Source: Candidatus Lloydbacteria bacterium RIFCSPHIGHO2_02_FULL_50_18
GTDB taxonomy: Bacteria; Patescibacteriota; Minisyncoccia; Phycocordibacterales; UBA6899
Length of the DNA stretch: 11,892 nt
Assembly (NCBI GenBank): GCA_001821395.1
Contig: MHLM01000002.1
Location: 1-11,892, forward strand
Direction of reading: 5' to 3'
The notes under the pieces were generated by a model. That model was not told where the DNA came from, ran no database searches, and was given only the letters and a program-made list of their open reading frames with translations. Of this stretch, positions 65 through 11,892 are shown in pieces. A program made the position numbers and the translations under genes. Each line of letters starts with the position of its first letter. The stretch's first letter is position 1.

Positions 65-745
65 ATGGAAAGAAAAGATCCACTCATTGAAGGCGAGCTC
101 TATCATATATTTAACCGAGGGGTTGAAAAAAGAATTGTGTTTAAAAGCCAATCAGATTTCAGGAGGTTCTATGAATCACTCGCACAATTTAACACTACAA
201 ATGCAGCGCTCCACTCACGCACAAAATTCACTACAGAGAACAAAAAATCTGTTGATGTCGAGGTCGGACCTCGACATAATAAGGAACAAAAGCTCGTGAG
301 TATCTTGGCGTATACACTTTTGCCAAATCATTTTCACTTACTGTTGCGACAAGAGAGTCCGGGCGGCATCACTGAATTTATGCGAAAAATTGGAACTGGA
401 TACACGATGTACTTCAATAAAAAATATGTTCGAATTGGTCCGCTTTTTCAAGGAAAATTTAAGAGTGTACTTGTGTCACGAGATGAATATTATCAATACA
501 TCCCCCACTACATACATCTCAACGTACTCGACGCAACACATGCCGGATGGAAGAATGACGGGATATCGGTGGATCAGGCGTACAACGAATTAAGCGCATA
601 TCGATGGTCAAGCGCAAAAGAATATATCGGAAATGATAATCACGAGAGCATACTTGCACATACGGTCATCGATTCGCTTTTTGAAGAAAAACTTTTCAAC
701 AAAAAAATACTCAAGGAGCTGCTCGAGGATGACGCTTCACTCTAA
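65..745 (+). CDS. IS200/IS605-like Y1 (HUH) tyrosine transposase, REP-associated (RAYT-type), 226 aa
   Basis: The ORF is intact. N-terminal motif ELYHIFNRGVEKRIVF. HUH motif in LAYTLLPNHFHLLL (aa 81-94). GPLFQGKFKS matches the RAYT 'G-LWQ-RF' block. A C-proximal RDEYYQYIPHYIHLNVLDA block resembles E. coli RAYT DYRHHVDYIYINPVKHG, which carries the catalytic Tyr. REP-like palindromes flank the gene in inverted polarity. The GGAG ends only 1 nt before the ATG, so the SD context is poor. Confidence 0.85.
   Translation: MERKDPLIEGELYHIFNRGVEKRIVFKSQSDFRRFYESLAQFNTTNAALHSRTKFTTENKKSVDVEVGPRHNKEQKLVSILAYTLLPNHFHLLLRQESPGGITEFMRKIGTGYTMYFNKKYVRIGPLFQGKFKSVLVSRDEYYQYIPHYIHLNVLDATHAGWKNDGISVDQAYNELSAYRWSSAKEYIGNDNHESILAHTVIDSLFEEKLFNKKILKELLEDDASL
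255..277. repeat. Perfect REP palindrome (11-bp stem, 1-nt loop: ATGTCGAGGTC-G-GACCTCGACAT) embedded in-frame in the transposase CDS
   Basis: The core 19-mer at 257-275 is identical to the copy at 5480-5498. It encodes V-D-V-E-V-G-P-R-H (aa 63-71). This falls in a stretch of about 20-25 residues that is extra relative to E. coli RAYT, between the first beta-strand/helix and the HUH strand. Confidence 0.8.
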
Positions 746-795: not shown

Positions 796-2982
796 CTATT
801 CGCCCATGAGGTAGAGACGCCGAATCTCGTCAATAGAAAGTATGCGATTGTAGACACGGAGATCATCGATGGAACCAGTAAATTGTCTGGTGTTTGCAGC
901 ACTATTTCCTATATAGTATGGGTTCGAGTTACCGACTGGTGCTGAAGGTGTAGTAACTGATATTCCTTTGAATACTCCATCAACGTAAAAAGCAGGAGCG
1001 GTACCGGCACCACCATAGGTCACGAGAACGTGTTGCCATTTATTTTGGACAACGATGTTCGCTGCTGATACAGCCACGTTCGCACCATCAGTGGAAAAAC
1101 TGAGACCATTAGCTACGTTCGAATTATCACAAATAAAGAGGGTACTCCCTTTATCCACAATACGACCTCTCGCACCCCCACTACTGAAGTTTGTCGGGTA
1201 GATCCAAGCTGCAATAGTCATCTGTCCAGTGATATTGAGTGATGCCCCCGTACCAGCATTCACCGAATCATTCACTCCATCGAAACGGAGGGCTTGTCCT
1301 ATCTTGCCGATGGTGGTGGTCGTTGGATTCTGATTCTGAAGGCCGCCATGATTCCCCTGCCCCGAGACGTCACGCACATTCGGCATCATATCCTTGCCGT
1401 CGAAGGTCCACTCGCCCATAAGACCGCTGGTGAGTTCATCGCGGTGCGTGACATTCATTTTGAGCGATGCGCCCATGAGATAAAGGCGCTGCACTTCCTC
1501 AGGAGAGAGGACACGATCATAGACACGGACCTCATCAATGAAACCATCGAAATACTGCACACGGACACCCGAAGTATTCACTACAGAGGAAATCGTTAGT
1601 GGTACTGCTCCATTAAAAAGACTCCCTATGTTGTTTGCACCACTTGTCGCCCCGTTACTCAGTACTCCATCAACATAAACATTCGGATAGACTATTCCGG
1701 TAGCAGAGAATGTCATAGTAATAAAGTGCCAATTCCCATCGTTCACCGTTGCGCTGGATATTCTCGTATTAGCACCTACTCCATCTGCTGAGACTAACGC
1801 CCAGAGAACTCCTGCGTTTGTGCCATTTCCGATACTCAACCAGTATTCTCTGTCATTTCCTTGACTCTTGTATTTTCCGATGACCGTTTGTGCAAGAGTA
1901 GTAGAACTTGTCTTAACCCAAGCCGAAAGAGAGATACTTGCTGAGGGGTTAACTGAAGCAGAATCAGGTATGGTCACATAATCATCCACCCCATCAAAAC
2001 TGAGCCCCTGCCCGATCTTGCCGACGGTCGTGGTCGTTGGATTCTGATTCTGCAAACCGCCATGATTTCCCTGCCCCGAAACATCGCGCACGTTCGGTAT
2101 CATGTCCTTGCCGTCGAAGGTCCACTCGCCCATAAGACCGCTGGTGAGTTCATCGCGGTGCGTGACATTCATTTTGAGCGATGCGCCCATGAGATAAAGG
2201 CGCTGCACTTCCTCAGGAGAGAGTGCGCGACTGTAGATGCGGACGTCGTCAACAACACCATTCGTGTTCCGAGAGGTAACACCATCACTGCCCACAACAA
2301 GACCTATGTTTGTTGAGGCGGATCCAGATACTGTTGTGGTTCCACTGAGCACGCCATCAATATACAAATAAGACACGTTTCCAGAACGTAGACCTAGATA
2401 ATAATGCCACGTATTGTCATTGACGGTTGCTAAAACAGACGAAGCATAGTACAAGGTAGTGCCATTAGAAATAACAAAATCTAACTTATTAGTGCTCGCA
2501 TAACTAAAGCCGTAACCGGCTCCAGCGCCATTGTATGACCGTTTGGCAAGTATTACATTCACCGAACTGCCTTGGGAGGAATATCCTGCTCCCTTCATCC
2601 AGAGTCCTACCGAGAAATCACCAGAACCAAAATCTAGTGCACCAGAAACAGGGTCACCGATATTGACGTAAGCGTCAGTATCAGCACCACCGGGGAAAAA
2701 ATTGAATGCTTGTCCGATCTTTCCGATGGTGGCTGCCGGACCATTGGTGAGTGTTCCATTATTCCCCTGACCGCTCCTGTCGTAGACCGTCGTGCCGGAA
2801 ATATCTTTCCCATCAAAACTCCAATAACCGACGAGTCCGGAATTAAGCCTGTATCCCTGCCATGCATTCACCACGAAATTTGCGAGGGCCGTGCGCTGAA
2901 AAAGCGCAAACGTCATTGCAAATACGACGATGAATACCGCGAGGAAAAGAGGAATGATCTTTGGGGAAATTTTTTTATGCAT
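796..2982 (-). CDS. Secreted protein with three tandem LamG/concanavalin-A-like lectin (LamG_3-type jelly-roll) domains. Distal gene of the array
   Basis: The ORF is intact. I place the start at ATG 2982 (MHKKISPK...) because that N-terminus is shared with the paralog. The ORF track's 2991 is an upstream TTG. Sec signal peptide MHKKISPKIIPLFLAVFIVVFAMTFALFQRTALA, with an AXA cleavage site before NF. Three repeats follow the LamG_3 pattern: G-x-W-x-FDG ... SGQGNxG-L ... GKIGQ-x-FDG ... W-H ... LY-DGV ... D(D/E)VR-Y-R-LS-xE-(V/I). Stop TAG at 796-798. No SD motif upstream. Confidence 0.85.
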   Translation of the reverse strand: MHKKISPKIIPLFLAVFIVVFAMTFALFQRTALANFVVNAWQGYRLNSGLVGYWSFDGKDISGTTVYDRSGQGNNGTLTNGPAATIGKIGQAFNFFPGGADTDAYVNIGDPVSGALDFGSGDFSVGLWMKGAGYSSQGSSVNVILAKRSYNGAGAGYGFSYASTNKLDFVISNGTTLYYASSVLATVNDNTWHYYLGLRSGNVSYLYIDGVLSGTTTVSGSASTNIGLVVGSDGVTSRNTNGVVDDVRIYSRALSPEEVQRLYLMGASLKMNVTHRDELTSGLMGEWTFDGKDMIPNVRDVSGQGNHGGLQNQNPTTTTVGKIGQGLSFDGVDDYVTIPDSASVNPSASISLSAWVKTSSTTLAQTVIGKYKSQGNDREYWLSIGNGTNAGVLWALVSADGVGANTRISSATVNDGNWHFITMTFSATGIVYPNVYVDGVLSNGATSGANNIGSLFNGAVPLTISSVVNTSGVRVQYFDGFIDEVRVYDRVLSPEEVQRLYLMGASLKMNVTHRDELTSGLMGEWTFDGKDMMPNVRDVSGQGNHGGLQNQNPTTTTIGKIGQALRFDGVNDSVNAGTGASLNITGQMTIAAWIYPTNFSSGGARGRIVDKGSTLFICDNSNVANGLSFSTDGANVAVSAANIVVQNKWQHVLVTYGGAGTAPAFYVDGVFKGISVTTPSAPVGNSNPYYIGNSAANTRQFTGSIDDLRVYNRILSIDEIRRLYLMGE
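1391..1508. repeat. 118-nt segment letter-identical to 2105-2222 within the same LamG gene (linker 2 vs linker 1)
   Basis: Read by eye: TCCTTGCCGTCGAAGGTCCACTCGCCCATAAGACCGCTGG...CTTCCTCAGGAGAGAG is identical at both sites. Both encode ...SLKMNVTHRDELTSGLMGEWTFDGKD on the minus strand. Confidence 0.8.
1976..2127. repeat. 152-nt segment letter-identical between the two LamG genes (gene 1 linker 1 vs gene 2 linker 1 at 4444-4595). About 93% identity continues to roughly 2250/4720
   Basis: ACATAATCATCCACCCCATCAAAACTGAGCCCCTGCCCGATCTTGCC...GTCGAAGGTCCACTC is identical at both sites at a constant offset of 2468. The flanking domain cores differ. Confidence 0.8.
2105..2222. repeat. Partner copy of the 118-nt perfect intragenic repeat (matches 1391-1508)
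   Basis: See the 1391-1508 feature. Confidence 0.8.
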
Positions 2983-3017
2983 ACATGGCAAGATATCATT
3001 TCAGGGCTGCTCGATGC

Positions 3018-3092
3018 TCAAGCGCCACTTTCTGCTGAAATGACGGGGGCAGGAACGTCAGGAACAGGTGCCGTAGGATCGGAAACAGGAAG
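3018..3092 (-). pseudogene. Relic of a giant-gene 3' end (C-terminal about 24 codons plus stop) upstream of the distal LamG gene. Footprint of a duplicated 'fibre C-terminus + LamG' unit
   Basis: The minus-strand translation ...LPVSDPTAPVPDVPAPVISAESGA* matches the giant protein's C-terminus ...PVSEPTAPVPDVPAPVISSGGGA*. At DNA level 3036-3090 aligns with 5548-5602, 55 nt with 2 mismatches. There is no plausible start or upstream coding context. Confidence 0.7.
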
Positions 3093-3185
3093 CGTAGTGG
3101 ATCGTTTAAAATGTTTCTTTATATTATTCATTTGCATATATCATAACACATAACATTTTCATCCATTCTTAGGGAGCTACCGATG

Positions 3186-3204
3186 TCAAGGTTAAACCTT
3201 GACA
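3186..3204. repeat. Variant REP palindrome GTCAAGGTT-A-AACCTTGAC (9-bp stem, 1-nt loop). Same architecture as the main REP
   Basis: Perfect 19-nt palindrome. It shares GTC-AGGT...ACCT-GAC with GTCGAGGTC-G-GACCTCGAC. It lies about 40 nt downstream of the LamG2 stop (3243), and a T6 run precedes it on the minus-strand transcript. Confidence 0.6.
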
Positions 3205-3242
3205 AAAAAGGCCTAAAATACGGCTAAGAACATGGAGGGCTT

Positions 3243-5459
3243 TTATTTGCCCATAAGGTAGAGACGCTGGATCTCGTCGGGAGAAAGTACGCGGTTGTAA
3301 ATGCGGACTTCATCCATTCTCCCAGAAAATAGTCTAAGGCTATCAGCGAAACGTCCAGCAATATAAAGTGGAGTTGAAGCACTTGAACCTATACTCTGCG
3401 TCATGTTTGCAGCAGTGGTTACTTTTACTCCATTAACATAGAAACTTAAAGTTCCACTTCCACTGTAGGTTACGGCAATATGCTGCCAACGATTTAACGT
3501 AATGACATTAGTTGCATATCCATAGTCTACACTAATACTACCCGCAGCATTTACGCCGAAACCAAGACCGGCTGTTGTATTTGTATTATCCAAAAGAAAA
3601 ATATAACCTACATTACTGCCTAGTCTGTCTACAATTCTTGCTCGGTCTCCGAATGAGGTTGGATATATCCAAGCATTTACCGTTATGGCAGTTGTGATAT
3701 TGAGCGATGAGCCAGTCCCAACATTTATTTTGTCATCTACCCCATCAAAATTCAACCCCTGTCCTATCTTGCCGATCGTGGTGGTCGTCGGATTCTGATT
3801 CTGAAGGCCGCCGTTGTTCCCCTGCCCCGAGACATCACGCACGTTCGGTGTCATGTCCTTGCCGTCAAAGGTCCATTCGCCCACGAGGCCACTCGTGAGT
3901 TCATCGCGATGAGTGACGTTTGTTTTGAGTGATGCACCCATGAGATAGAGGCGCTTAACTTCATCGGCAGAGAGGGCGCGGTTGTAGGCACGGACCTCGT
4001 CAAGATTGCCGTCAAAGGGCATACTCCAATCAGAACGAGCGCCGACGACTAAGGCGTTTGACCCTGCGCTAATTGCACTGATACCAACAGTGCTCACTCC
4101 ATTGTCGCCCACCCCAACACCATTAACATACAGCTTCAGCCCACTCGCATTATTCGCCAAAAAAGTGCCGCACACATGTGTCCACACGCTCAGTTGAGTC
4201 GTATTTGACGGAGTTTCGATTCTCGCAGTACCAGTATCGGCACTATCCCAAATAGCAAAAGTGTACACGTCTGTTCGTCCCGAAGAAAAACCAACATCAT
4301 CACGAAAAAGAAGAAAACCGTTACTAGCAACAACGTCTTCCTTTGCAATGATGGCGTCATCGGATGTAATTGACCCATGATAGGCCCAGACACAAACTGT
4401 AAGTTCTGTCGCTGTATCTAAACTATTAATATCTCCCGCACTGACATAATCATCCACCCCATCAAAACTGAGCCCCTGCCCGATCTTGCCGACGGTCGTG
4501 GTCGTTGGATTCTGATTCTGCAAACCGCCATGATTTCCCTGCCCCGAAACATCGCGCACGTTCGGTATCATGTCCTTGCCGTCGAAGGTCCACTCACCAA
4601 CGAGACCCCCGGTGAGTTCATCGCGGTGGGTGACGTTTGTTTTGAGCGATGCGCCCATGAGATAGAGACGCTGCACTTCCTCAGGAGAGAGTGCGCGACT
4701 GTAGATACGAACGTCATCAACAATAACGTTGGCGTTTCTACCTCCATCGAGAGCACTATCGGCACCAATGATAAGACCGGAGGCAGTAGAACATGAGCCA
4801 CTTACTGTTGCGTTCGTACCCCTCACCATTCCGTCTCGATACAATGACATCATACCCCCCGAACGCATTCCGACATAGTGATGCCATGTATTATCATTCA
4901 TGGTGGCTGAAACATCATTAGCAGAATATGCTGTAGTGCCGTTCGCGATAGTAAAAGCCAGTATATTCCCACTGCCATAAGAAAATCCATAACCGGTTCC
5001 GACACTATTGTATGACTTTTTCGCGAGTGCTACATTCACCGAACTACCTTGAGAGGAATATCCAGTTCCTTTCATCCAAAATCCTACCGAGAAATCCCCT
5101 GTTCCAAAATCGAGCATCCCTGAAACGGGATCCCCCATGTTCGCATATGCATTCGTATCGGAACCATTAGGGAAAAAATTAAATGCTTGCCCAATCTTGC
5201 CGATGGTGGCTGCCGGACCATTGGTGAGCGTTCCATTATTGCCCTGGCCACTCCGATCATAGGCTGTTGTGCCGGAGATATCTTTGCCATCAAAACTCCA
5301 ATATCCGACGAGTCCGGAATTAAGTCGATACCCCTGCCATGCATTCACCACGAAATTTGCAAGTGCCGTGCGTTGAAATAGCGCAAACGTCATTGCAAAT
5401 ACGACGATGAATACCGCGAGAAAAAGAGGGATGATCTTTGGGGAGATTTTTTTATGCAT
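3243..5459 (-). CDS. Secreted protein with three tandem LamG/concanavalin-A-like lectin domains. Proximal gene of the array and paralog of 796-2982
   Basis: The start is placed at ATG 5459 (MHKKISPK...), which is the same signal peptide as in the paralog. The track's ORF runs to 5606 only because the frame stays open across the REP and the giant gene's 3' end. The first ~95 aa are near-identical to the paralog, as are the inter-domain linkers, but the cores of domains 1-3 are diverged and domain 2 is essentially a different LamG variant. Stop TAA at 3243-3245. No SD motif upstream. Confidence 0.85.
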   Translation of the reverse strand: MHKKISPKIIPLFLAVFIVVFAMTFALFQRTALANFVVNAWQGYRLNSGLVGYWSFDGKDISGTTAYDRSGQGNNGTLTNGPAATIGKIGQAFNFFPNGSDTNAYANMGDPVSGMLDFGTGDFSVGFWMKGTGYSSQGSSVNVALAKKSYNSVGTGYGFSYGSGNILAFTIANGTTAYSANDVSATMNDNTWHHYVGMRSGGMMSLYRDGMVRGTNATVSGSCSTASGLIIGADSALDGGRNANVIVDDVRIYSRALSPEEVQRLYLMGASLKTNVTHRDELTGGLVGEWTFDGKDMIPNVRDVSGQGNHGGLQNQNPTTTTVGKIGQGLSFDGVDDYVSAGDINSLDTATELTVCVWAYHGSITSDDAIIAKEDVVASNGFLLFRDDVGFSSGRTDVYTFAIWDSADTGTARIETPSNTTQLSVWTHVCGTFLANNASGLKLYVNGVGVGDNGVSTVGISAISAGSNALVVGARSDWSMPFDGNLDEVRAYNRALSADEVKRLYLMGASLKTNVTHRDELTSGLVGEWTFDGKDMTPNVRDVSGQGNNGGLQNQNPTTTTIGKIGQGLNFDGVDDKINVGTGSSLNITTAITVNAWIYPTSFGDRARIVDRLGSNVGYIFLLDNTNTTAGLGFGVNAAGSISVDYGYATNVITLNRWQHIAVTYSGSGTLSFYVNGVKVTTAANMTQSIGSSASTPLYIAGRFADSLRLFSGRMDEVRIYNRVLSPDEIQRLYLMGK
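4444..4595. repeat. Partner copy of the 152-nt perfect inter-paralog repeat (matches 1976-2127)
   Basis: See the 1976-2127 feature. Confidence 0.8.
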
Positions 5460-5479
5460 ACACTGCTGGCGTGCTGGAG

Positions 5480-5498
5480 GTCGAGGTCGGACCTCGAC
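5480..5498. repeat. Dispersed perfect copy of the REP 19-mer GTCGAGGTC-G-GACCTCGAC in the 70-bp gap between the giant gene stop and the LamG2 start
   Basis: Identical to 257-275. The left flank carries a GAGGTC duplication (gGAGGTCGAGGTCg). Confidence 0.8.
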
Positions 5499-5511
5499 AA
5501 GATGATGCACT

Positions 5512-5524
5512 GAGGCCCGGCCTC
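5512..5524. repeat. GC-rich REP-like mini-palindrome GAGGCC-C-GGCCTC immediately 3' of the giant gene stop. With 5480-5498 it forms a BIME-like tandem of related hairpins
   Basis: 6-bp stem, 1-nt loop. The context tGAGGCCcGGCCTCg parallels cGAGGTCgGACCTCg of the main REP. Confidence 0.5.
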
Positions 5525-5529
5525 GAAGC

Positions 5530-8500
5530 TCACGCGCCTCCCCCGGATGAAATGACGGGGGCAGGAACGTCAGGAACAGGTGCCGTAGGCTCGGAGACAG
5601 GAGCATCGGGAACTGGGGGCGTTGGTTCTGGGACAGGAGTATCGAGAACAGGAGGCGTGGATTCGGAAGTAGGAGGCGTGATGGGTTCTGAAACGAGTGG
5701 TGTAACGGGTTCAGTTACGGTAGAAACCGTTGATTCAGTAACAACGGGTACGCCCGACTCAGTGTTTGTGGTGTCACCGGTACCCACCTCAACAGTCGGC
5801 TGTTCTATTGTAGGTGGTGTTGAGTTTGCGCTCGTACTGCCTCCGGTAGCCCCCTCTTCAGGAGGCAATTCATCAAACGGAGTTCCCGACTGGATTAGGA
5901 GTGCACGCAGTCCCGCCTCGTCGATGCAGACACGCCCGACACATAATTTCTTTGTCTGCACTTCAGGGATCTTGAGCACACCGTTCTCATCGAGCGACCA
6001 GTTGTTTGCAACGCCGCGTAACGAGCCGATCTCAGCGATCGAGAATGACTGCATGTTGATCGATGCATTGGCGAGCATTGTATTGTTCTCAGTATCGACA
6101 GACCAGATATTCCCCAGGTCGACCGATTCGCCCGACACCGCACTTCCGAGCGAGCTCAGCTTGGTCTGCACGAATACGAACAGCTTCATTGTTGTCTCAT
6201 TGTTCACCGTAGCGATATATGGCTCAAGTGCGATACCGACTGTTGGCTCTCCCGGTGCGGCCTTCTTTCCTACTCCAATGACGGATGAAGGAGCGATCAT
6301 GTCTCCCACATGGATCGCACCGCCCTCAAGCGAGACCGTCACCGGGACACGTCCGACAAGCGCGATCGGGATCTGCCGTGCGTTATTCTCGGCAACATCA
6401 TCCTTGATATCGCCCGCGACTTTAAATCCACCGAGAATGACACCCGGATCAGTCGAGACAACACCGAAGAGAATTGGACCGGGAACAGTTTTGTCAAAAC
6501 GCTTCACGAACACGGGATGTGCGGGATCGAGCATGACGATATCGCCCGGCATAGCGGCGCTGTCGAGTGTCGGATACTGCTCGGCAACGTCGATACCGGC
6601 AAGCGATGAACCTTCTCCGTAGATGAACCCTCGCGTGCGTGCTGCAGCAGAACACTCACCACCATCATCGTTCACACAGATGATACCATTCTCAACAATG
6701 AGCGACGCATCGGGAATGTTGGATGAATAATACGGCGTCGTGGAACCGATATTCACGGTTGTTGAACCCACTGTGCCACCTGATAATGCTTCACCCGAGA
6801 TCGTGAGCATAGGGATGCCATCGAGCTGTGCGGAGTAGCGTTCTTTCGTTCCCACTGCGGATAATGAAGTAATGTTCATATCGATCCAGCTCAAAATACC
6901 CGCATCGTTCTCAAATTCCGCAGGACCCGCCTCAAGGTGGTCCACCGACATGTTGACGAACGATGAGGTGGCCGAGGAAGAAGTGGCGGTAAAGAAGTTC
7001 GCAAGTACCTCGCCGACCACAGAGAGTTTCGCCCATGGAGAACTCGTGCCGATCCCCACATTACCATTGTTCAACACCGTGAAGAGCGTGGTCGAGGCGC
7101 TGTTGGCTACTTCAAATGCCATTGAAGTTGCGAGGGTATCCCCTCCCCAGACCGTGAGCTTGGCATAGGGAGAAGAGGTGCCGACACCGAGCTTGCCAGT
7201 GAGTGGCTGGGTGGTGAGGGAAGTGTTTGTTGTGGTGGCAGGAAGGTTGGCAAAGAGGAAGTTGCCGATGTTCATCATGTTGCTCGAGGATACTGCGGGG
7301 AATTTGATGTTGTAGCCCATGCCAATGTTGTTGTAGCCCGTGGTGATGGCGGTGCCTCCGGAGTTTTGGTCATGTCCGAGGAAGATATTGTCATAGCCGG
7401 TAGTGACGTTGAGGCCGGCTTGATAGCCGAGGGCGGTGTTGTATGAGCCAGTATTGTTGAGGAAGAGGGCTTGATACCCCAATGCGTTATTGTATAAGCC
7501 GGTGGTATTGGCGTTGAGGGCGCTTACTCCCAAAGCGGTGTTGTATGAGCCGGTGGTGTTGGAGTAGAGGGCGCTTGCTCCCAATACGTTGTTGTATGAG
7601 CCGGTGGTGTTGGAGTAGAGGGCGTATTGTCCTAATGCAGCGTTGACGCTTCCGTTAGTGTTGGAGTAGAGGGCGGAATATCCCAATGCGTTGTTGCTGG
7701 AGCCAGTGGTGTTGGAGTAGAGGGATTGGTACCCCAATGCATTGTTCGCTGCGCCGGTCGAGCCATTCGTCCCAGAAAGTCCTCTGAGTGCTTGAAATCC
7801 TACAGCAAAATTATCTGTTCCTGACGTTGCATATTGCATTGCGTATTGACCCATCGCAATGTTGTTACCACCAGTAGCCGGTGATCCTCCTGTGAAGGAT
7901 CCGGTGGTGGTTGCTCCCGCATAGTAGAAGTTCATGCGGGTTGAAGAGGCGGCCATACCGAGAACGCCATTCAAGTAGTATCCACCGAGGGAGCTCGTGG
8001 CGTTGAATGCGGTTGCGTTTGGGGTGGAGGTTGGAGCGATAGTCGTGGCACTCGTCCAAGCGGAGAGCATTCCTGCAACACCACCGGAGAGTGATGCACC
8101 TGAAGTGAGGCAGGTGCCGTTCACGGCGAAGCAGCCTGCAGCAAGATTGATGCCACCGGTACTATTGAATGTTGAAGTTGCTGCGGTAAAGTTGATACCG
8201 TTTGTTGTGCCGAGGGAGAGGAGAGAGCCAGGAGTGGTCGAGCCAATTCCCATGTTGCCACTATTTGCGACGGTAAATACTTCATCAGACGAGTTGTTTA
8301 AGCTCATGATCTTGCCTGTTCCCATCTGGGTGGTTGATGCGAGAGCAACGGAGGAGGAGGCGAAGATGGAAAGTGGTGAGTATGCGACTTGTCCGAGTTG
8401 TTTAGTATCGAGCGTGAGCCGATCCCACTCTGTGTATTTCGTGCCGGTTCCGAGGTCATTGATTGACGATGCACCCGTGCCGGAGTATGAGTTGCCGACG

Positions 8501-11500: not shown

Positions 11501-11892
11501 ATGAAGAGATCGGCAATTGTGATGTATGAGAGTGTGTTTGCCACGATAGCGTTGGCGGTTGCGTTGGTGGATGACGCAATATGAATGACCGTAGATTGTC
11601 CTGCTCCAATGAGTGATGTTGAGGTTGCCATCTGGATCTTGTCCCCTGCTCCGGTGGAGAGATAGTAGTCTCCTTCCATGAGGTAGACCTTGCCGCCACG
11701 GCCTCCTGCGTATGCAGCTTGGAGGGCGGTGTTGATTGCGGTTTCTGCGCCTGCGCCGTCTGCGACATAATCTGCGTACGCTTTGTTCGTGGAGTTTTGT
11801 GCTGCGACGGTATAGGTTGCACCGTCACCATCGGGAGATGCTGCTCCCCCTCCGACACACGTGCCGTTCACTGCGAAGCAGCCGGCGGAGAT
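5530..11892 (-). CDS. Giant modular surface/fibre-like protein, 5'-partial (at least 2120 aa in the window). Two tandem units of ~763 aa (tailspike/pectate-lyase-like beta-helix + stalk + 17-residue repeat array), a C-terminal globular domain and a Pro/Thr-rich tail
   Basis: One uninterrupted frame runs from the window edge to the stop at 5530-5532. The frame is still open at 11892 (translation ...ISAGCFAVNGTC... matches the internal repeat SSGCFAVNGVC), so the true start lies outside. GDGATYTVAAQ...GAETAINTALQAAYAGGRGGKVYLMEGDYYL is the typical N-cap of the Pectate_lyase_3/tailspike beta-helix family. NxxLTGNTANSNSxYGIYL repeats are PbH1 beta-helix coils. Confidence 0.85.
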   Translation of the reverse strand: MSAGCFAVNGTCVGGGAASPDGDGATYTVAAQNSTNKAYADYVADGAGAETAINTALQAAYAGGRGGKVYLMEGDYYLSTGAGDKIQMATSTSLIGAGQSTVIHIASSTNATANAIVANTLSYITIADLFIDGNRGRNTSSQTGIQFTSVSSSTIRNVTVATTTDTGIYLVSSLNNTVIGNTFSGNGNNGFLLSATSLNNIVTGNTVNSNTNYGIYLMSSSNNIVTGNTANSNSYTGIYLAGSSNNNIVTGNTVNNNSFYGIFLSSSSNNTVTGNSLADNTAASANSSIRIETSDWNVISSNIIQDTAGTGYAIHLTSSASDNNVLIGNSYSGIGASSIQDLGTNTKYTQWDRLTLDTKQLGQVAYSPLAIFASSSVALASTTQMGSGKIMSLNNSSSEVFTVANNGYVGIGTTSPWAKLSVAGNIAIDTGVTDGYVYWNGQKFITASSTTYNTFMGLGAGTSSTPGINNTAFGYWALQANTGNFNTAFGKSTLMQNTTGNINTAIGEAVLQSNLTGGYNTGVGAGALSNNISGSDNTAVGSNSLGKNTTGGGNSAFGETSMLENTTGSFNSVFGGSALSNNTIGSYNNAFGHYSLIFNTTGSYNTALGNQAGYNVTTGYDNIFLGHDENVGGTAITTGYNNIGMGYNIKFPAVSSSNMMNIGNFLFANLPATTTGTTLTTQPLTGKLGVGTSSPYAKLTVWGGDTLDTSRAFEAVNSASTSLFSIFNNGLASTSNFIVSNTATTSNLAVTGGATSTFAGGIALSSGCFAVNGVCVGGGAASPDGDGATYTVAAQNSTNKAYADYVADGAGAETAINTALQAAYAGGRGGKVYLMEGDYYLSTGAGDKIQMATSTSLIGFGNSTVIHIASSTNATANAIAANTLSYVTIADLFVDGNQGRNTGFQNGIRFTSVASSTIRNITVATTTNHGIFLSSSNDNTLTGNTTNSNNGNGIYLSSSSNNTLTGNTANINAIGISLLSSLNNTLTGNIANSNSSIGISLSSSNDNILTGNTANSSGNFGIYLLSSLNNTVTGNTVRNNYDGMKIYLSSNNTLTGNTADSNSHYGFYLDSASNNTVTANSLYNNGAAGANSSIYIITSDGNVVSSNSIVDTAGTGYAIDIVNSTSDNNVLVGNSYSGTGASSINDLGTGTKYTEWDRLTLDTKQLGQVAYSPLSIFASSSVALASTTQMGTGKIMSLNNSSDEVFTVANSGNMGIGSTTPGSLLSLGTTNGINFTAATSTFNSTGGINLAAGCFAVNGTCLTSGASLSGGVAGMLSAWTSATTIAPTSTPNATAFNATSSLGGYYLNGVLGMAASSTRMNFYYAGATTTGSFTGGSPATGGNNIAMGQYAMQYATSGTDNFAVGFQALRGLSGTNGSTGAANNALGYQSLYSNTTGSSNNALGYSALYSNTNGSVNAALGQYALYSNTTGSYNNVLGASALYSNTTGSYNTALGVSALNANTTGLYNNALGYQALFLNNTGSYNTALGYQAGLNVTTGYDNIFLGHDQNSGGTAITTGYNNIGMGYNIKFPAVSSSNMMNIGNFLFANLPATTTNTSLTTQPLTGKLGVGTSSPYAKLTVWGGDTLATSMAFEVANSASTTLFTVLNNGNVGIGTSSPWAKLSVVGEVLANFFTATSSSATSSFVNMSVDHLEAGPAEFENDAGILSWIDMNITSLSAVGTKERYSAQLDGIPMLTISGEALSGGTVGSTTVNIGSTTPYYSSNIPDASLIVENGIICVNDDGGECSAAARTRGFIYGEGSSLAGIDVAEQYPTLDSAAMPGDIVMLDPAHPVFVKRFDKTVPGPILFGVVSTDPGVILGGFKVAGDIKDDVAENNARQIPIALVGRVPVTVSLEGGAIHVGDMIAPSSVIGVGKKAAPGEPTVGIALEPYIATVNNETTMKLFVFVQTKLSSLGSAVSGESVDLGNIWSVDTENNTMLANASINMQSFSIAEIGSLRGVANNWSLDENGVLKIPEVQTKKLCVGRVCIDEAGLRALLIQSGTPFDELPPEEGATGGSTSANSTPPTIEQPTVEVGTGDTTNTESGVPVVTESTVSTVTEPVTPLVSEPITPPTSESTPPVLDTPVPEPTPPVPDAPVSEPTAPVPDVPAPVISSGGGA
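5533..5871 (-). other. Pro/Thr/Glu/Val-rich low-complexity C-terminal tail (aa about 2001-2113). Likely an extended spacer or wall-spanning segment
   Basis: ...TEPVTPLVSEPITPPTSESTPPVLDTPVPEPTPPVPDAPVSEPTAPVPDVPAPVISSGGGA*. Confidence 0.6.
5872..7074 (-). other. C-terminal globular region (aa about 1600-2000) containing the motifs GDIVMLD, GVVSTDPGVILGG, ALVGRVPVTV and GAIHVGDMIAPSS
   Basis: Non-repetitive sequence with mixed composition, distinct from the upstream repeats. The motifs resemble C-terminal domains seen on some phage tail-fibre-like proteins. The family assignment is unverified. Confidence 0.35.
7141..7360. repeat. About 220 nt at roughly 90% identity to 9781-10000. Both encode the conserved junction GYDNIFLGHD...NIGMGYNIKFPAVSSSNMMNIGNFLFANLPATTT...GKLGVGTSSPYAKLTVWGGD
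   Basis: Long identical runs, e.g. GCAGGAAGGTTGGCAAAGAGGAAGTTGCCGAT and GAGGATACTGCGGGGAATTTGATGTTGTAGCCCAT. The period of this segment is 2640 nt, different from the 2289-nt period of the cap, so the duplication is mosaic. Confidence 0.75.
7312..7851 (-). other. Array 2 of about 8 tandem 17-residue repeats of the same family
   Basis: aa about 1341-1520: ANNALGYQSLYSNTTGS / SNNALGYSALYSNTNGS / VNAALGQYALYSNTTGS / YNNVLGASALYSNTTGS / YNTALGVSALNANTTGL ... Confidence 0.7.
8512..9561 (-). other. Beta-helix module 2 (second copy of cap plus PbH1 coils), aa about 771-1120
   Basis: The same cap sequence is repeated 763 aa downstream of the first. The coils are diverged, e.g. NSNSHYGFYLDSASNNTVTAN. 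Confidence 0.6.
9351..9605. repeat. Internal tandem duplication of the giant gene: about 255 nt at roughly 92% identity to 11640-11892. Period 2289 nt = 763 aa
   Basis: GTCCCCTGCTCCGGTGGAGAG...GCGACGGTATAGGTTGC...CACTGC read in parallel at both sites. Both encode the beta-helix cap (GDGATYTVAAQ...KVYLMEGDYYL). Confidence 0.8.
9781..10000. repeat. Partner copy of the 7141-7360 junction repeat
   Basis: See the 7141-7360 feature. Confidence 0.75.
9952..10509 (-). other. Array 1 of about 9 tandem 17-residue repeats, consensus x-(Y/F)-N-(T/N)-A-(F/L/I)-G-x-x-(A/S)-L-x-x-N-T-T-G (51-nt period)
   Basis: aa about 455-640: NFNTAFGKSTLMQNTTG / NINTAIGEAVLQSNLTG / GYNTGVGAGALSNNISG / SDNTAVGSNSLGKNTTG ... 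The register is exact over 8 or more units. Confidence 0.7.
10912..11892 (-). other. Beta-helix module 1 (pectate-lyase/tailspike-like cap plus about 9 PbH1 coils), aa about 1-320 of the visible ORF
   Basis: Cap motif AETAINTALQAAYAGGRGGKVYLMEGDYYL, then repeated N-N-x-(I/V/L)-T-G-N-T-x-N-S-N-x-x-x-G-I-Y-L rungs. Confidence 0.6.
11640..11892. repeat. Partner copy (unit 1) of the 2289-nt-period duplication
   Basis: See the 9351-9605 feature. Confidence 0.8.

Follow-up and report, generated by a model that had tools for sequence, protein, structure and literature searches.

How did the end of one gene come to lie in front of another? The question is raised by an 11,892-nt stretch of DNA (hereafter the window) from Candidatus Lloydbacteria bacterium RIFCSPHIGHO2_02_FULL_50_18 (contig MHLM01000002.1), a groundwater organism of the Parcubacteria within the candidate phyla radiation (CPR). 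Here, a giant right-handed beta-helix gene is followed by two tandem genes for secreted laminin G (LamG) domain proteins, and the 3′ end of the giant gene recurs as a short relic directly upstream of the distal LamG gene. We propose that this relic is most probably an inert scar, left by a single rearrangement in a surface-protein locus that is prone to recombination. It keeps an older or allelic form of the junction between giant gene and LamG gene, while the working gene end is the derived form. All large genes of the window are encoded on the minus strand. The features on which the argument turns are the following.

3018 to ~3096, minus strand: relic of the giant gene's 3′ end, ~25–26 in-frame codons (..T(T)LPVSDPTAPVPDVPAPVISAESGA) and a TGA stop (3018–3020)
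3036–3090, minus strand: relic core, a 55-nt repeat with 2 mismatches to 5548–5602
2983–3035, minus strand: relic tail (codons AESGA and stop) and 35-nt spacer (2983–3017), up to the start of the distal LamG gene
5533–5608, minus strand: functional counterpart of the relic, ~25 codons that close the giant gene (...PVSEPTAPVPDVPAPVISSGGGA) ahead of its stop at 5530–5532
5530 to beyond 11871, minus strand: giant right-handed beta-helix gene (Pfam/NCBIfam), running off the right end of the window at 11892
3243–5459, minus strand: proximal LamG gene, 738 aa, signal peptide and three Laminin_G_3 domains
796–2982, minus strand: distal LamG gene, 728 aa, signal peptide and three Laminin_G_3 domains

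The first-pass annotation had reported the 55-nt direct repeat with its 2 mismatches, had noted that it brackets the proximal LamG gene, and had taken the stub for a copied end of the giant gene. The repeat was readily recovered: its copies flank the proximal LamG gene on both sides, the 54-mer 3037–3090 recurs at 5549–5602 with 2 mismatches, the pair grows to 81 nt at 88% identity in the repeat finder (3010–3090 versus 5522–5602, family D16), and the longest perfect run in the relic spans 42 nt (3036–3077 = 5548–5589). In the minus-strand frame, the relic reads ...KRSTTLPVSDPTAPVPDVPAPVISAESGA (also given as ...TTLPVSDPTAPVPDVPAPVISAESGA), with the stop at 3018–3020. The upstream edge of the homology is sharp and lies between 3090 and ~3107, its last dozen bases being ambiguous because Pro/Thr-rich repeat units permit alternative alignments. 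A composition of this kind could by itself produce a chance or low-complexity match between Pro/Thr-rich codon repeats, and the giant tail is indeed a Pro/Thr/Val-rich linker with internal repeat units that blur the upstream edge. However, no third copy of the 54-mer with up to 3 mismatches exists on either strand of the window, none of 200 dinucleotide shuffles yielded a match, and the homology of the relic runs on collinearly through the spacer and the complete gene downstream. The repeat is thus specific, as the first-pass annotation had supposed, and we give a chance origin practically no weight.

That the stub is a copy of a giant-gene 3′ end was corroborated by the nearest GTDB representative, Parcubacteria group bacterium GW2011_GWA2_47_7 (LCOM01000035.1, here L007), whose giant 3′ end is 88% identical to that of the window over 965 nt. 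In L007, the giant gene is intact and ends in ...PVPDAPAPVISAESGA (also given as ...PVTPPVSEPTPPVPDAPAPVISAESGA), i.e., ...PVISAESGA*. Next come a spacer of 35 nt and the only LamG gene, and no palindrome is present. The relic tail and spacer of the window match this functional junction almost base for base (~95% identity), which again speaks against chance, whereas the working giant gene of the window ends in SSGGGA* and is followed by a 70-nt spacer. SAESGA*, first regarded as a potential alternative ending of the giant protein, is therefore a genuine one that an intact gene carries, and since the L007 gene combines this ending with the same spacer and a LamG gene, the relic represents a retained ancestral or allelic gene end.

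Site patterns in a four-way alignment of the distal unit and the proximal unit of the window, L007 and a contig of a Candidatus Lloydbacteria metagenome-assembled genome (MHLI01000018.1, here L003; 96.9% identity to the window across 8.2 kb) revealed the polarity of the change. Within the core (3036–3097), the relic agreed with the window's giant gene and not with L007 at 9 sites, and with L007 but not the giant gene at none. In the tail and spacer (2983–3035), it agreed with L007 and not with the window's giant gene at 20 sites, with a single site of the opposite pattern. Mismatches between relic and giant gene were accordingly distributed unevenly (core 2/55, tail 22/53; Fisher p = 1.3e-6). 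The relic core thus groups with the window's own giant gene, not with L007. Relic and spacer are only 2–5% away from functional gene ends, and all four sequences share the same last ~19 nt of coding tail ahead of the divergent patch. The view of the relic as a decayed copy of the present gene end had to be abandoned, as the site patterns make the present end (SSGGGA* plus palindromes) the derived form and leave the relic with the older or allelic one.

What changed at the working junction can be described in detail.

5460–5529, minus strand: remodelled spacer between giant gene and proximal LamG gene, 70 nt, with palindromes at 5479–5500 and ~5512–5524

Compared to the relic junction, AES has become SGG, and ~20 substitutions as well as insertions of 3 nt and 32 nt are present; the palindrome-bearing spacer accounts for the ~35-nt indel and the substitution cluster between both junctions. 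The inserted material contains a 21-nt palindrome, (T)GTCGAGGTCSGACCTCGAC(A), resembling repetitive extragenic palindromic (REP) elements, and a second, related palindrome. Exact copies occur at 31–52, 256–277, 748–769 and 5479–5500 (4 exact-core copies and 1 degenerate copy in the window), with counts covering only the 11.9-kb window and short contigs of the strain, and the palindrome was found neither in L007 nor in the other 78 CPR loci fetched. The predicted RNA fold of the rewritten spacer reached –41.8 kcal/mol (z = –2.6) versus –14.4 kcal/mol (z = –0.1) for the relic-type spacer. It appears that a REP-like insertion rewrote the coding 3′ end of the giant gene. We also observed that the two palindromes in the spacer pair with each other, and that the insertion coincides with the replacement of SAESGA by SSGGGA at the end of the giant protein.

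The homology between the two units begins at the relic, crosses the spacer and covers the entire length of the LamG gene up to its 3′ end (local alignments 1229–3090 versus 3694–5602 and 797–888 versus 3244–3335). Past the LamG stops, the flanks share only the REP-like palindrome, 26–37 nt downstream. Because the homology is collinear throughout, a unit of gene end, spacer, LamG gene and flank is present twice in tandem. The earlier proposal that "fibre C-terminus + LamG gene" had been duplicated as a tandem unit is therefore right about the double presence of the unit; its simplest version, duplication followed by divergence, fails. Between 2270 and 2699, the distal LamG gene differs from the proximal one at 139 of 430 aligned sites. 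The proximal gene and L007 are nearly identical in this region, agreeing with each other and not with the distal gene at 136 of the 430 sites, so that the distal LamG body must be much older than its own upstream stub. The uniform age expected of two units after a simple in-situ duplication was not found. Instead, DNA identity between the two LamG units is mosaic and ranges from 100% down to ~40%. Plain in-situ duplication with subsequent point divergence could thus be ruled out, since the relic (2–5% diverged) is far younger than the distal LamG body (about one third diverged, with swings from 100% to ~40% identity).

1976–2127 = 4444–4595, minus strand: perfect 152-nt tract common to both LamG genes, the longest inter-unit recombination substrate
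1262–1554, 1976–2268, 3727–4019 and 4444–4736: LamG cores; in addition, a 92-nt family (D4) with six copies
3098–3184, no strand assigned: AT-rich junction segment between the proximal LamG flank and the relic, holding the start of a 37-aa open reading frame (ORF)

The proximal and distal LamG proteins both start with MHKKISPKIIPLFLAVFIVVFAMTFALFQRTALA... and share 62% amino-acid identity. Each LamG domain contains a conserved core of ~290 nt that is 79–100% identical among copies, while the segments between the cores can barely be aligned; conserved anchors thus alternate with hypervariable inserts. The 152-nt identical tract suggests recent gene conversion. The same tract is also a site where contigs break, as in contig L006, or mis-join. 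The AT-rich segment found no match in the 85 fetched loci except copies of this locus. If the present distal flank had simply been duplicated in tandem, this piece (3091–3184) should be a decayed 3′ end of the REP-associated tyrosine transposase (RAYT)-like gene; this candidate was rejected, as 378 of 1000 shuffles reached its local alignment score.

In the relatives, the locus is in the single-copy state, and the proximal LamG gene is allelic to their single LamG gene. L007 carries one LamG gene followed by housekeeping genes, and L003 has one LamG gene followed by an L007-type flank, on a contig that ends after 178 nt and may be chimeric. The L007 LamG gene is 97–100% identical to the proximal gene over ~450 nt, which indicates a probable recent transfer of a LamG segment between lineages. 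When L007 1–2752 was aligned to window 6594–3733, the identity was seen to jump at the LamG gene, whose first two thirds reach 97–100%. Further variants point in the same direction. In L003, the sequence agrees 100% with the window type as far as 4668 and 100% with the L007 type from 4653 on. Contig L087 (ENA ERZ4903072, k141_2263902) carries, at 1–1893, the 3′ end of the window's proximal LamG gene, the AT-rich piece, the relic and the spacer; behind the spacer, its LamG 5′ region is 100% L007-type for ~400 nt and then proximal-type, not distal-type. It may represent an additional haplotype, one in which another gene occupies the distal slot. We consider this switch probably real because the shared tract is far shorter than the assembler k-mer, taking k = 141 from the contig name (k141_...). 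L004/L005 equal the window except that 714 nt between two LamG core repeats are cleanly missing, and in P0002 distal domain 1 is joined to proximal domain 2. At the level of these contig sequences, exchange between strains at this locus is directly visible. The crossovers lie in LamG core repeats in three of the four variants (L003, L004/L005 and P0002) and near the distal LamG start codon in L087; in none of the four structural variants does the crossover fall in the relic.

The same variants raise the concern that the tandem might itself be an assembly artefact, in which a window-type LamG gene was wrongly extended by an L007-type contig of giant-gene end and LamG gene. The population does comprise several strains that are nearly identical and have tracts of ≥150 nt in common, and contigs break or switch at such tracts, as seen for L006, which ends in the 152-nt tract, the L003 switch and the P0002 chimera. 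Yet the order of proximal LamG gene, relic and LamG start recurs in L001, L002, L006/L086 and L087, and because these four further contigs come from four other samples, the arrangement is not the product of a single assembly. Despite different assemblers, they agree identically over the span from the proximal LamG 3′ end through the AT-rich segment and the relic to the LamG start. Moreover, the bases of the relic core are window-type and not L007-type, and the AT-rich joining segment occurs nowhere else in the 85 fetched loci. An artefact is thus extremely unlikely.

Because the units of the window are not uniformly diverged, the history of the locus includes allele import, gene conversion or both. 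We envisage that a single illegitimate join stacked two units of giant-gene end, spacer and three-domain LamG gene head to tail, which would have left the last ~25 codons and the stop of the giant gene upstream of the distal LamG gene. Stub and 35-nt spacer would then conserve the older or allelic junction (...SAESGA*, no palindrome), a form still functional in L007, while the working junction would later have been rewritten in one patch with a ~35-nt insertion of REP-like palindromes. The LamG bodies would have become mosaic at that stage, or would have been so already, through recombination at the conserved ~290-nt core repeats, both between the two LamG copies and with co-occurring strains. 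Two histories would fit these steps. Either the unit was duplicated in situ after the split from L007 and its LamG bodies were then overwritten by inter-strain recombination, or two diverged alleles of giant-gene end and LamG gene were stacked by a homology-anchored illegitimate join that pushed the resident unit downstream together with a stub of its gene end. We hold both to be about equally probable.

Several points weigh against this account of the relic as an inert scar. The source genome is incomplete, so that a paralogous donor locus may lie elsewhere. The proximal flank (3098–3242) is not recognisably homologous to the distal flank or the L007 flank beyond the palindrome, which leaves the left end of the unit poorly defined, and no source for the 87 AT-rich nucleotides was found among the 85 fetched loci. 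The variants derive from short-read metagenome assemblies, and L003, P0002 and L005 could be chimeric or collapsed. Finally, the inertness of the stub is read from an absence of signals, and CPR promoters lie outside the consensus that was scanned.

As an inert scar, the relic is a fresh instance of a feature type already known, the footprint of tandem duplication or unequal recombination. In line with a tandem-duplication boundary fragment, the window holds two direct copies of the unit and a truncated piece of the upstream gene at a novel join, and its relatives L007 and L003 possess a single copy. Unlike such a fragment, the stub is only 2–5% diverged whereas parts of the distal LamG gene are diverged by 30–60% and other parts are 100% identical, and it is the functional gene end that changed in the window, not the stub. 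The stub itself is of little consequence. As a dated marker, however, it makes the history of the locus readable: the ancestral junction, the REP-like rewriting of the giant-gene end and the piecemeal exchange of LamG segments among co-occurring Parcubacteria strains. Cell-surface variability in CPR bacteria may govern host attachment.

The first-pass annotation had also suggested that recombination between the two 55-nt copies would excise the proximal LamG gene and place the distal one behind the giant gene. In this scenario, the relic would be kept as a recombination handle, and a crossover would delete the proximal LamG gene, fuse the SAESGA tail to the giant protein and thereby effect a one-way partner switch, comparable to the activation of orphan Rhs/CdiA-CT modules. 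On paper such a route exists: the product, a giant gene ending in SAESGA* with a 35-nt spacer and a LamG gene, equals the architecture that functions in L007, the stub shares a 42-nt perfect run (55 nt at 96%) with the main gene, and recombination of an Rhs orphan stub with its main gene is documented for Salmonella, according to the mention of Koskiniemi 2014 in PMC5361080. The corresponding deletion variant, joining ~5548 to ~3036, was looked for in the available contigs and was not found: in none of the contigs retrieved is the giant body connected to the SAESGA tail and distal LamG, and in each of the four contigs that extend beyond the relic on its upstream side, the proximal LamG gene is what precedes it. 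An exact 26-mer of the relic core retrieved only two known contigs and no recombinant from the Joint Genome Institute (JGI) metagenome contigs, and it had no match among viral contigs. Exact-protein look-ups with the distal LamG protein and the 37-aa relic ORF likewise yielded no contig with the predicted join. Since few contigs were sampled, this lack of recombinants is weak evidence. Of the four crossovers observed, three lie within the core repeats of LamG domains and one close to the start codon of the distal LamG gene. Better substrates are available within the LamG genes, namely the 152-nt perfect tract and 41 nt in the signal-peptide region, with other runs of 38–41 nt. A programmed switch would call for a dedicated recombinase or for inverted or direct target sites, and for both states in the population. 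In the window, we found no recombinase besides the RAYT-like ORF and a single stub only, and at the relic one state alone was seen.

Analogous stubs were likewise not found among 79 CPR loci that carry LamG homologues (three longer matches, in L019, L038 and L040, were left aside). Tandem LamG ORFs, mostly 2–80 nt apart, occur in 20 of these loci, and no stub of this kind was found in them; upstream similarities in the surveyed loci were mostly conserved LamG 3′ ends of neighbour genes. Searching for other giants with an SAESGA ending by means of the giant's last 359 aa returned only relatives at ≤49% identity, a result that is uninformative on paralogues as it missed the known L003 orthologue. 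Taken together, a partner switch through the relic is very unlikely.

A broader version of this idea would see a CPR displacement array, in which modules of giant-gene end and LamG gene, imported from co-occurring strains by homology-anchored illegitimate recombination, push older ones downstream together with a stub of the former gene end, and the stub and the core repeats could revive or reshuffle former partners. Displaced C-terminal modules or orphans are known from Rhs and CdiA loci (Jackson 2009, PMC2935791; Koskiniemi 2014, PMC3967940) and from type VI secretion system (T6SS) arrays of V. cholerae (Kirchberger 2017, PMC5361080). A homology-anchored illegitimate join is also the proposed mode of stacking in the C-terminal displacement of Rhs and in the effector-immunity arrays of the Vibrio T6SS (PMC5361080). 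The likeness lies in a large conserved gene with a partner gene, an older 3′-end stub with a partner of its own downstream, a formation that is plausibly explained by homology-anchored illegitimate recombination of an incoming allele, and a stub that could in principle recombine with the main gene. In contrast to those systems, the stub of the window has no toxin domain or demarcation motif (no VENN, no PxxxxDPxGL) and encodes a Pro/Thr-rich linker tail; the partner is a secreted three-domain LamG protein of ~730 aa and not a small immunity protein; and there is one stub instead of an array, with no recombinant seen among the few available contigs. The locus thus resembles these orphans in the way they form and is not a member of the group, and we consider a functioning displacement array improbable. 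If true, it would entail heritable changes in adhesion or host specificity of an episymbiont. Should the stacking in particular prove to be allele capture and not duplication, the displacement-array logic of toxin loci would extend to surface and adhesion proteins of CPR bacteria.

Antigenic variation by silent cassettes, exemplified by pilE/pilS, offers another comparison. As in such systems, conserved and variable segments of a surface protein form a mosaic and exchange takes place at the conserved ones. Unlike there, both LamG genes of the window are complete, with their own start codons and signal peptides, and the window shows neither a bank of promoterless cassettes nor any sign of a programmed high-frequency process.

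A further alternative concerns the inertness of the stub, which could persist as a functional 5′ region of the distal LamG gene, with cis-acting signals (an internal promoter, a leader or a translation-initiation context) that a LamG gene would ordinarily draw from the giant-gene end. The distal LamG gene has kept the native 35-nt spacer of L007 at 95% identity, the invariant ~19 nt of coding tail precede the divergent patch, and by eye an extended –10-like motif, TGtTATGAT, can be recognised at 3149–3141 (minus strand), within the AT-rich segment that precedes the stub. Scanning 2900–3300 and 5380–5780 for sigma-70-type promoters and intrinsic terminators gave no hit to a consensus that does not cover CPR promoters, and an Rfam scan of the whole window gave no match. 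The conservation of the stub can equally be explained by its youth or by gene conversion, and the other strain-level copies of the relic (L005 and L087) are identical to the window and therefore provide no test of constraint. L005 in particular was set aside as an independent strain for this purpose, being the window with a 714-nt deletion or collapse. A role as 5′ region is thus unlikely overall, although the stub may, as a minority possibility, contribute native 5′ context to the distal LamG gene. Read-through of the stop codon into a giant-LamG fusion was rejected, as coordinate arithmetic places neither LamG start in frame with the giant stop; the stop-to-start distances are 73 nt and 38 nt, so that the frame offset differs between the junctions. 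Gene predictors called the 37-aa ORF (MNNIKKHFKRSTTLPVSDPTAPVPDVPAPVISAESGA; 3047–3160, minus strand) in four assemblies, fusing the AT-rich junction to the relic. As two thirds of it consist of an out-of-context gene end, this ORF is probably a spurious by-product of annotation.

A RAYT-like gene with copies of the palindrome on both sides is located at the left end of the window.

65–745, plus strand: IS200/Y1-type ORF, RAYT-like, flanked by palindromes at 31–52 and 748–769, with a third in frame at 256–277
3185–3205, no strand assigned: variant REP-like palindrome (TGTCAAGGTTAAACCTTGACA) downstream of the proximal LamG gene

The ORF matched Pfam Y1_Tnp with 28.3 bits, above the 23-bit cut-off, while its best NCBIfam match, REP_Tyr_transpos (REP-associated tyrosine transposase), scored 35.9 bits and thus remained under the cut-off of 80 bits. 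HFH and YIHLN motifs were recognised by eye, and a PDB sequence search returned no meaningful match. REP elements and bacterial interspersed mosaic elements (BIMEs) are known to be associated with RAYT (Nunvar 2010, PMC2817692). Similar to these, the Y1/IS200-like ORF of the window sits between two ~21-nt palindrome copies, palindromes also occupy intergenic positions, including the doublet between giant gene and proximal LamG gene, and palindrome variants keep their symmetry via compensatory changes. The copy at 3185–3205, for instance, differs from that at 748–769 by two compensatory pair changes and is still a perfect palindrome. Unlike known REP/RAYT systems, the host belongs to the CPR, the RAYT score is far under its cut-off, and one palindrome lies in frame inside the ORF. 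A REP/RAYT system in a CPR genome is possible, and we regard the assignment as probable. Such an element would account for the difference between the two junctions, not for the relic. As the palindrome core itself is symmetrical, orientation could be read from the flanking bases only. The in-frame palindrome at 256–277 encodes VDVEVGPRH, and the copy at 748–769 extends to a perfect 37-nt palindrome, CTCTAATCTGTCGAGGTCCGACCTCGACAGATTAGAG, with a predicted fold of –35.9 kcal/mol (z = –6.6).

The genes that follow the L007 locus encode a methyltransferase, BipA, a DEAD-box helicase, TlyA/FtsJ and CorA; because these are housekeeping genes, the locus is chromosomal DNA and not phage. The giant gene comprises more than 2113 aa in the window, its L003 orthologue 2792 aa, and only Beta_helix/NosD repeats were matched in the protein (Pfam and NCBIfam). 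Between 7064 and 11602, the gene contains long internal repeats with a period of ~2.3–2.6 kb (families D6–D8, 73–84% identity) as well as tandem beta-helix repeat arrays of 51 nt and 69 nt. The C-terminal ~350 aa (5530–6600), which follow the beta-helix repeats, are non-repetitive and have no Pfam match. Motifs in this region include GIDVAEQYP and GDIVMLDP, and a Pro/Thr-rich tail continues up to the last residues. Homologues of the C-terminal region with 30–49% identity were detected in many CPR contigs, four of which carry PF16403.

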